64,000 bases of DNA from the NCBI RefSeq assembly GCF_041248615.1, contig NZ_CP158426.1; one strand, written 5' to 3'. This DNA comes from Escherichia coli. GTDB taxonomy: Bacteria; Pseudomonadota; Gammaproteobacteria; Enterobacterales; Enterobacteriaceae. Every line of letters begins with the position of its first letter. Position 1 is the stretch's first letter. Position numbers and translations under genes: made by a program. Positions 21,910 through 23,730 of the stretch are shown in pieces. The notes below the pieces were generated by a model. That model saw only the letters and a list, made by a program, of their open reading frames with translations, made no database searches and had not been told where the DNA came from.

Positions 21910-23730
21910 CTACTCTCCCTGTTGTCTGGCTGAAGGCAGTTTGGCCGCTTTATTAACGTCATACCACCAGGTATCGATACCCAGGCTGTAAACAGGGCGT
22001 ACAGCGGGTTGGGAGAATTTATCCCACCAGGCGAGACGGTCTTCCGCCATGTACCACATTGGCAGCATGTAATAATTCCACGTTAATACGCGATCCAGTG
22101 CTCGCCCCAACGGCAGTAATTTTTCTTTATTTCCCTGCGCGGCAATAATTTGATTGATCAGCGAGTCGATAACCGGGCTTTGCACGCCGGGGGCATTATA
22201 AGTGGAATTGATATATTCCGATGACCAGGAAATCTGTAAATCGGAACTGGGCTACGGCATCGCCCGCCATACGCGCGGCATCATGTCATAGTCGCGACTG
22301 CGCATGCGGTTGGTGATTTGCGAGTTATCCACTTTGCGAATGTCCATGTTGATACCCAGCCGTTGCAGGCTGTGCTGGAACGGCAATACCCACTGACTAT
22401 TGCTGCTCGAAGGTAGCAATAACTCAAAGCTGAGCGGCTGACCCGTTGTGGCATTTACGCGTTGCTGACCCTTCAGCACCCAGCCCGCTTCGTTGAGAAG
22501 TTTGTCGGCTTTTAACAGGTTGTCACGATCGTAGCCATCGCCTTTGGATACCGGCGGCTGGTAGATTTGTGTGAAGACTTCTGGCGGTAGATCTTTTTTC
22601 ATTGGTGCCAGAAGCACCAGCTCCGCGGCGTCGGGGTAATTTCTGGCCGCGTATTCGGTATTCTGAAAATAACTGTTCGTGCGACTCCAGGCATTGTAAA
22701 ACAACGCTTTGTTCATCCATTCAAAGTCAAAGGCGAGAGTGATCGCTTCCCGCACCCGGCGATCGCTGAATACCGGACGTTGGATATTAAACGCCAGCCA
22801 GCGCGTATCCTGGGCTGATTCGTTCTTTTGCTCATCTTTGATGATGTATTTCTTATCGAAATTTTTACCGGTATAGCGCGTGGCCCAGTTTTTGGCGTCG
22901 TTTTCCATACGCAAATCAAAGGCACCGGCTTTAAACGCTTCAAAGGCGACATTATCATCGAGGTAATAATCGTAGCGAATGGTGTCGAAATTCCAGCGTC
23001 CACGGTTTACCGGTAAGTTTGCTGCCCAGTAATCTTTCACGCGGGAATAGACAATATTTTGCCCCATTTTCCAGGACGTAATTCGGTACGGACCACTGGC
23101 AAGCGGAGGCGTGGCGAGCGGGTCGCTAAGTTTGTGATCCTTCCAGTACTTTTCTGGAAAGACCGGCAGCGAAAACAGACTCAGCATATCTTCTTTGCCG
23201 GGTTTAGCTAACTCAATGCGCACGGTTAACGGCGCAATGGCTTTGACGGTGGTGCCTTTGTAGACCAGACGAAATTGCGGCACGCCTTCGGTCATAAATT
23301 TTTGAAAAGTAAACTCTACATCGCGGGCAGTAATGGGCGAACCATCATGAAAACGGGCGAGCGGATTAATAGCGACCTCCACCCAGGAATAATCGTCAGC
23401 ATAGCGTGCACTTTCAGCAATCAGCGGGTAATAACTGCCTGGTTCGTCATCGGAAGTCGTAAATAGCGTGTCGTACAGCTGCTCGGTGCGTGCGCCCGGG
23501 TTGCCGCGCAGTGCATAGCGGTTGAAATTATCGAAGGTACCGAGGGCTGACAACGTTATCTGCCCACCTTTTGGTGCGGCGGGGTTCACATAATCAAAAT
23601 GGTTGAAATTAAACGCGTACCGGGGTTCGCCCAGCACGGCAAAGGCATAGCTTTCCTTGATAGCCTGCGCCTGCGCACCGAAGGTGAACAGAGCGATAAA
23701 CAGCAGCAGTATGCGCACAATCATCTGCAA
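21910..23730 (-). pseudogene. yejA: Periplasmic substrate-binding protein YejA, interrupted by in-frame TAG at 22252..22254
   Basis: 492-codon ORF (23730..22252) and 91-codon ORF (22185..21910) are in the same frame, separated by one TAG; the whole span is 606 codons, the size of an intact family-5 binding protein. Confidence 0.8.

Follow-up and report, generated by a model that had tools for sequence, protein, structure and literature searches.

In the 64,000-nucleotide stretch of Escherichia coli DNA analyzed here (the window), yejA, the gene for the substrate-binding protein of the YejABEF transporter, carries a premature amber codon. Taken as a whole, we consider it highly probable that a G:C>A:T change in the lineage of strain NRZ14408 turned yejA codon 491 from TGG into TAG and that the binding protein was thereby lost. 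The lesion is already present in public annotation, in which RefSeq (PGAP) marks the yejA CDS R2K29_RS08690 as a pseudogene and gives "internal stop" as the note, and it is an ordinary, lineage-specific nonsense pseudogene.

The minus-strand frame running from 23730 to 21907 contains a single internal stop (...MMPRVWRAMP*PSSDLQISWSSEY...), a TAG read on the minus strand at 22254..22252. Translation of the window and a check of the individual bases both bore out the initial annotation on this point, and the open reading frame (ORF) list places the two ORFs that it had described, one of 492 codons with a TTG start (22252..23730) and one of 91 codons with a GTG start (21910..22185), in the same frame. 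Its further proposal, that these two ORFs make up one gene of intact size, needed adjustment: the frame does amount to a full gene of 604 codons, but its annotation begins with the ATG at 23724, two codons into the TTG ORF, and the tail counts 113 codons, not 91. The yejA pseudogene thus delimited (21910..23724, minus strand; RefSeq, PDB, and Pfam matches) consists of a remaining ORF of 490 codons (22255..23724), the stop at codon 491 (22252..22254), and 113 further in-frame codons that are left untranslated (21913..22251), followed by the natural stop, which is also a TAG (21910..21912). The 91-codon ORF is only the portion of this tail from its first GTG on; it starts 22 codons past the premature stop and lacks a signal peptide. 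If the stop is disregarded, the frame matches the full-length YejA WP_001590365.1 at 100% identity, with one differing nucleotide, and this identity rules out, at the level of sequence, that the split frame is a chance pattern.

The window is identical to the record of E. coli NRZ14408 (NZ_LT599825.1) at all 64,000 positions, as two stretches of that record joined together, and among 5,426 complete E. coli genomes, a megablast search with the yejA gene gave this same record as the one 100% match. A table in PMC6101002 lists NRZ14408 as a German foot-wound isolate from 2014 that belongs to ST362 and carries KPC-2 and mcr-1. The strain is multidrug-resistant and is used in testing, for instance in the darobactin MIC panels of PMC8694152. 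The closest complete genome is that of isolate 362 from Madrid (NZ_OW967178.1), in which yejA is intact with 604 codons. The two yejA genes are exactly one nucleotide apart, at window position 22253, which is T on the plus strand of NRZ14408 and C in the relatives, so that TGG (Trp) in isolate 362 stands against TAG in NRZ14408. The outgroup strain M217, 11 differences away, also has TGG at codon 491.

To count the two alleles, we used 31-base probes centred on the mutated base, a design in which every 28-base megablast word must contain that base. The TAG version was found in one of the 5,426 complete E. coli genomes, NRZ14408 itself, and the exact TGG version in 5,121. The comparison with other genomes that the initial annotation had recommended thus gave a clear answer, and its suggestion of a nonsense mutation holds, with TGG ancestral in both the nearest relative and the outgroup. 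Only one lineage has the stop allele, the further carriers found being DNA-identical assemblies. With the sense codon in isolate 362 and M217 and the TAG 31-mer in a single complete genome, the sequence comparison therefore makes the stop a derived singleton allele. The mutation had also been called recent, which is true in the sense that it arose after the divergence from isolate 362, on a terminal branch with ~7 derived SNPs per 54 kb, and in no other sense. Natural YejA homologues that end at the residue equivalent to the premature stop were considered as another source of the pattern and rejected.

The surrounding sequence provides the background against which this change can be read. From proL rightwards, 54.2 kb of the window are collinear with isolate 362 at 99.965% identity, with 11 core SNPs and one 1-bp indel. 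When these SNPs were polarised with M217 as the outgroup, seven were derived in NRZ14408, six of them G:C>A:T, and four in isolate 362, all of them G:C>A:T, which gives the NRZ14408 terminal branch roughly 1.3e-4 substitutions per site. The W491* change is a G:C>A:T transition too and, since six of the seven SNPs derived in NRZ14408 are of this type, it is an ordinary part of the usual spontaneous mutation spectrum on that branch. A mutator or an error-rich assembly, an idea prompted by several window proteins with unique accessions, was rejected, as the numbers of SNPs (seven versus four) and their nature, nearly all G:C>A:T in both strains, correspond to the usual spectrum. A Dcm hotspot was likewise rejected as the cause of W491*, the context being CCGTGGCC and not CCWGG.

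The initial annotation had also raised the possibility of a sequencing error at this single base; an error of sequencing or of assembly would mean that the real genome has TGG. Two observations would fit an error: the TAG occurs in only one complete genome, and the same window has a 1-bp deletion in a short C run of yeiW that could come from a long-read consensus error. However, the change in yejA is a substitution and not a homopolymer indel, and the exact 490-residue product was found twice more in a protein collection built from NCBI and Logan sources, in GCA_014863425.1 and in the Logan assembly of SRR12326972, each time with identical flanks. GCA_014863425.1 is identical to the window over 7.5 kb and carries its copy on a 5,345,375-base contig, which differs from LT599825 in length and by a coordinate offset of 220 bp; the Logan assembly is identical over 6.3 kb. 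These two data sets may come from the same culture or DNA preparation, but they are at least separate assemblies, and an assembly artefact is unlikely because such assemblies, one of them built directly from a public read set, share the truncated ORF. An error at this single base thus appears very improbable.

What remains of the reading frame codes for the signal peptide and lobe 1 of YejA together with most of its lobe 2. A phmmer search against the PDB in which the stop was read as Trp aligned residues 20-604 end to end with E. coli YejA (8FSR, 7Z6F, and 7ATR, E = 0), and Pfam SBP_bac_5 (PF00496) matched residues 98-502 (E = 7.2e-65), so the stop at 491 clips the last part of the domain. 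The structural description in PMC10924461 uses mature numbering, which is the precursor numbering minus 19, and Trp491 of the precursor is therefore Trp472 of the mature protein. As described there, lobe 1 is formed by residues 1-286 and 540-579, lobe 2 by residues 287-539, and the hinge by the segments 282-287 and 540-542, while Ser475, Asp476, Thr489, and Tyr490 are among the residues that contact the ligand. The same numbering fits the window, which locally reads W472-P-S-S475-D476...T489-Y490. The 114 residues from the Trp to the C-terminus (mature residues 472-585) are gone. With them the protein loses these four residues of the ligand site, roughly a quarter of lobe 2, one hinge strand of two (540-542), and the C-terminal part of lobe 1.

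The gene nonetheless has the marks of a family 5 (cluster C) binding protein, with a full-length match to a characterised YejA, the PF00496 domain, and an operon shared with yejB, yejE, and yejF; an uninterrupted frame encoding both lobes and both hinge strands is what the TAG at codon 491 takes away. Compared with the crystallised E. coli YejA (PDB 7ATR, 7Z6F, and 8FSQ-8FSS), it occupies the same locus between pdeN and yejB and, with Trp in place of the stop, is essentially identical to it from residue 20 to residue 604. In contrast to that protein, the NRZ14408 frame is broken at codon 491, making it a pseudogene allele without mature residues 472-585. Because both ligand contacts and elements of the fold are missing, we infer that the truncated YejA cannot work as a binding protein. 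A split but functional protein made of the 490- and 91-residue parts was rejected on similar reasoning: the smaller ORF has no signal peptide and therefore could not reach the periplasm or complement there. Near-cognate reading of the UAG at a low level might still yield traces of full-length YejA.

The rest of the operon is preserved. The genes follow the order yejA-yejB-yejE-yejF on the minus strand, with pdeN upstream of yejA. The permease gene yejB (20815..21909; WP_000501604.1) encodes an identical protein in NRZ14408, isolate 362, and M217, and the permease gene yejE (19790..20815; WP_001590366.1) and the double ATPase gene yejF (18199..19788; WP_001590367.1) encode proteins identical to those of isolate 362. 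All three had been described as intact, which is corroborated by protein accessions equal to those of isolate 362, a strain whose yejA is intact. The yejB ATG directly adjoins the natural yejA stop (GAGTAGATG), and a GGAG-like Shine-Dalgarno sequence lies before it within the 3′ end of yejA. Judging from this arrangement, yejB translation can probably still occur, and the 342 untranslated bases may bring a loss of translational coupling as well as Rho-dependent polarity. The first ~100 nt past the premature stop are rich in C relative to G (C/G of about 1.6), a base composition that is permissive for Rho without being evidence for it.

The sequence of events that we propose would begin with a spontaneous G:C>A:T mutation, in the lineage leading to NRZ14408, that changed yejA codon 491 from TGG (Trp) to TAG. 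Translation would then end after residue 490, and the exported fragment, short of the last 114 residues, would be non-functional as a binding protein and probably unstable. YejBEF would still be encoded but would be left without their binding protein, and polarity may lower their expression. Yej-mediated peptide uptake would be lost, with resistance to microcin C and similar Trojan-horse peptides as the predicted result. The initial annotation's description of YejABEF as the uptake route for microcin C agrees with the literature, since microcin C resistance follows from the deletion of any single one of the four yej genes, as stated in PMC10924461 with reference to Novikova et al. On the analogy of these single-gene deletions, NRZ14408 is expected to be resistant to microcin C and to other peptides imported through Yej. 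As in the laboratory yej null mutants of Novikova et al. 2007, in the account given by PMC10924461, one yej gene is inactivated and the rest of the operon is present. Unlike those mutants, obtained by transposon insertion or deletion, the lesion here arose naturally, as a point mutation in a clinical isolate, and the resistance is a prediction only. A yejA-null NRZ14408 would resist microcin C as well as peptide conjugates taken up via YejABEF, which is relevant to anyone testing Trojan-horse peptide antibiotics on this strain and has little significance beyond it.

This prediction would fail if a nonsense-suppressor tRNA of the strain read the amber codon and kept yejA functional, a situation that the initial annotation had also envisaged. 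Nothing specific speaks for suppression, the idea having been prompted only by the stop being UAG. We built 31-base probes with suppressor anticodons from the K-12 tRNA genes that are one base change away from an amber or ochre suppressor; phage- or plasmid-borne suppressors of unrelated sequence and release-factor or ribosomal mutations fell outside this search. The joined probes had matches in 158 of the 5,426 complete E. coli genomes. Among the matches listed, all were K-12 laboratory derivatives with supE-type glnV/glnX (such as C600, DH5alpha, DH1, J53, and S17-1) except DSM 498, which matched the serU-CUA (supD) probe, and OV2, which matched the tyr-CUA (supF) probe. The recovery of known supE strains shows that the method works. 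The supF, supD, supP, Trp-CUA, supB, supC, and supG probes had no match in NRZ14408, and among the 5,426 genomes they matched only DSM 498 and the laboratory strain OV2. As the matches listed covered only part of those to supE, the glnV-glnX cluster was located directly in NRZ14408, where ARAGORN gave CTG anticodons for both genes, which are hence wild type. The only tRNA gene in the 64-kb window is proL. Besides the wild-type glnV and glnX and the absence of the seven other single-step suppressor alleles, it weighs against suppression that the natural yejA stop is also a TAG, so that a suppressor would extend the protein as well, and that the ancestral codon is Trp and the allele a singleton. 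Suppression of the yejA stop is thus extremely unlikely. Some of the genomes matched by the suppressor probes carry host labels ("mouse gut" and "chicken", for instance) and yet are of K-12 size.

The loss of YejA through a premature stop, which we retain as the best explanation, has counterparts elsewhere in E. coli. Many other assemblies, with Shigella sonnei among their source names, also have a call for the downstream ORF of 91 residues, and in those examined yejA carries either W500* (TGG>TAG) or, at codon 511, a frameshift by loss of one C (-1C) from a C5 run. The backgrounds of these lesions differ, with 30-36 nucleotide differences in yejA. Like W491*, these two lesions independently disrupt the C-terminal part of yejA and leave the same 91-codon ORF downstream; unlike it, they lie at other positions and in other backgrounds. 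W500 is part of a CCTGG, which is a Dcm site, whereas W491* (CCGTGGCC) is not at such a site. At a Dcm site, deamination of 5-methylcytosine on the opposite strand yields exactly a TGG>TAG change, as in the amber hotspots of lacI. W500* is present in 2 and the codon-511 frameshift in 1 of the 5,426 complete genomes, and on these counts yejA is almost always intact in E. coli and lost sporadically. Natural E. coli strains do lose the gene now and then, and one of these losses lies at a classic hotspot of deamination, a Dcm site.

These additional lesions bear on whether W491*, taken as real, was positively selected and not a product of neutral decay, the loss of YejA shielding a multidrug-resistant clinical lineage from the microcin C-like Trojan-horse peptides of competitors. 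Such a reading elaborates the best explanation rather than excluding it, and it draws on the fact that Yej loss is the known route to microcin C resistance and that the independent W500* and codon-511 lesions cluster in the same C-terminal stretch. However, the alleles are very rare (1, 2, and 1 of the 5,426 genomes for W491*, W500*, and the frameshift, respectively), which fits sporadic loss under purifying selection. Moreover, W500* lies at a Dcm CCTGG and the frameshift in a C5 run, hotspots that explain recurrence without selection, and the lesions were found through their shared 91-residue ORF, a route of discovery biased to sites just upstream of that ORF. Positive selection of W491* therefore seems doubtful, and the fuller version, in which YejA loss was selected in a carbapenem- and colistin-resistant clinical lineage against microcin C-type or other toxic peptides imported by Yej, with the W500* and codon-511 lesions as convergent events, seems quite doubtful.

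Several other features of the window came to light in these comparisons. Relative to both isolate 362 and M217, NRZ14408 has derived amino-acid changes in Bcr (A208V, window position 16950), RihB (P90S, 41167), and YeiE (R260H, 47195), and its RihB and YeiE bear high-numbered accessions other than those annotated in isolate 362 or M217. In yeiW (30793-31056), NRZ14408 has one C fewer than isolate 362 in a short C run at window position 31039. As a result, the gene has 264 nt, against 255 nt in isolate 362 and M217, with its last codons shifted and an overlap with setB. This 1-bp deletion may be genuine or may come from an error in a long-read consensus.

At the left end of the window, the collinearity of NRZ14408 with isolate 362 begins only at position 9758. 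Isolate 362 has a prophage beside the proL tRNA gene, with tail sheath, tape measure, and baseplate genes, where NRZ14408 has ccm-narP-IS1-yejO. The IS1 copy, 768 bp long (6705-7472), lies between narP and the autotransporter gene yejO. Compared with M217, 523 bp are missing at the IS1/yejO junction, a gap that takes in the promoter region of yejO and its first 366 nt; the yejO remnant (7473-9698) is therefore a 5′-truncated pseudogene, and its truncation is consistent with an IS1-associated adjacent deletion.
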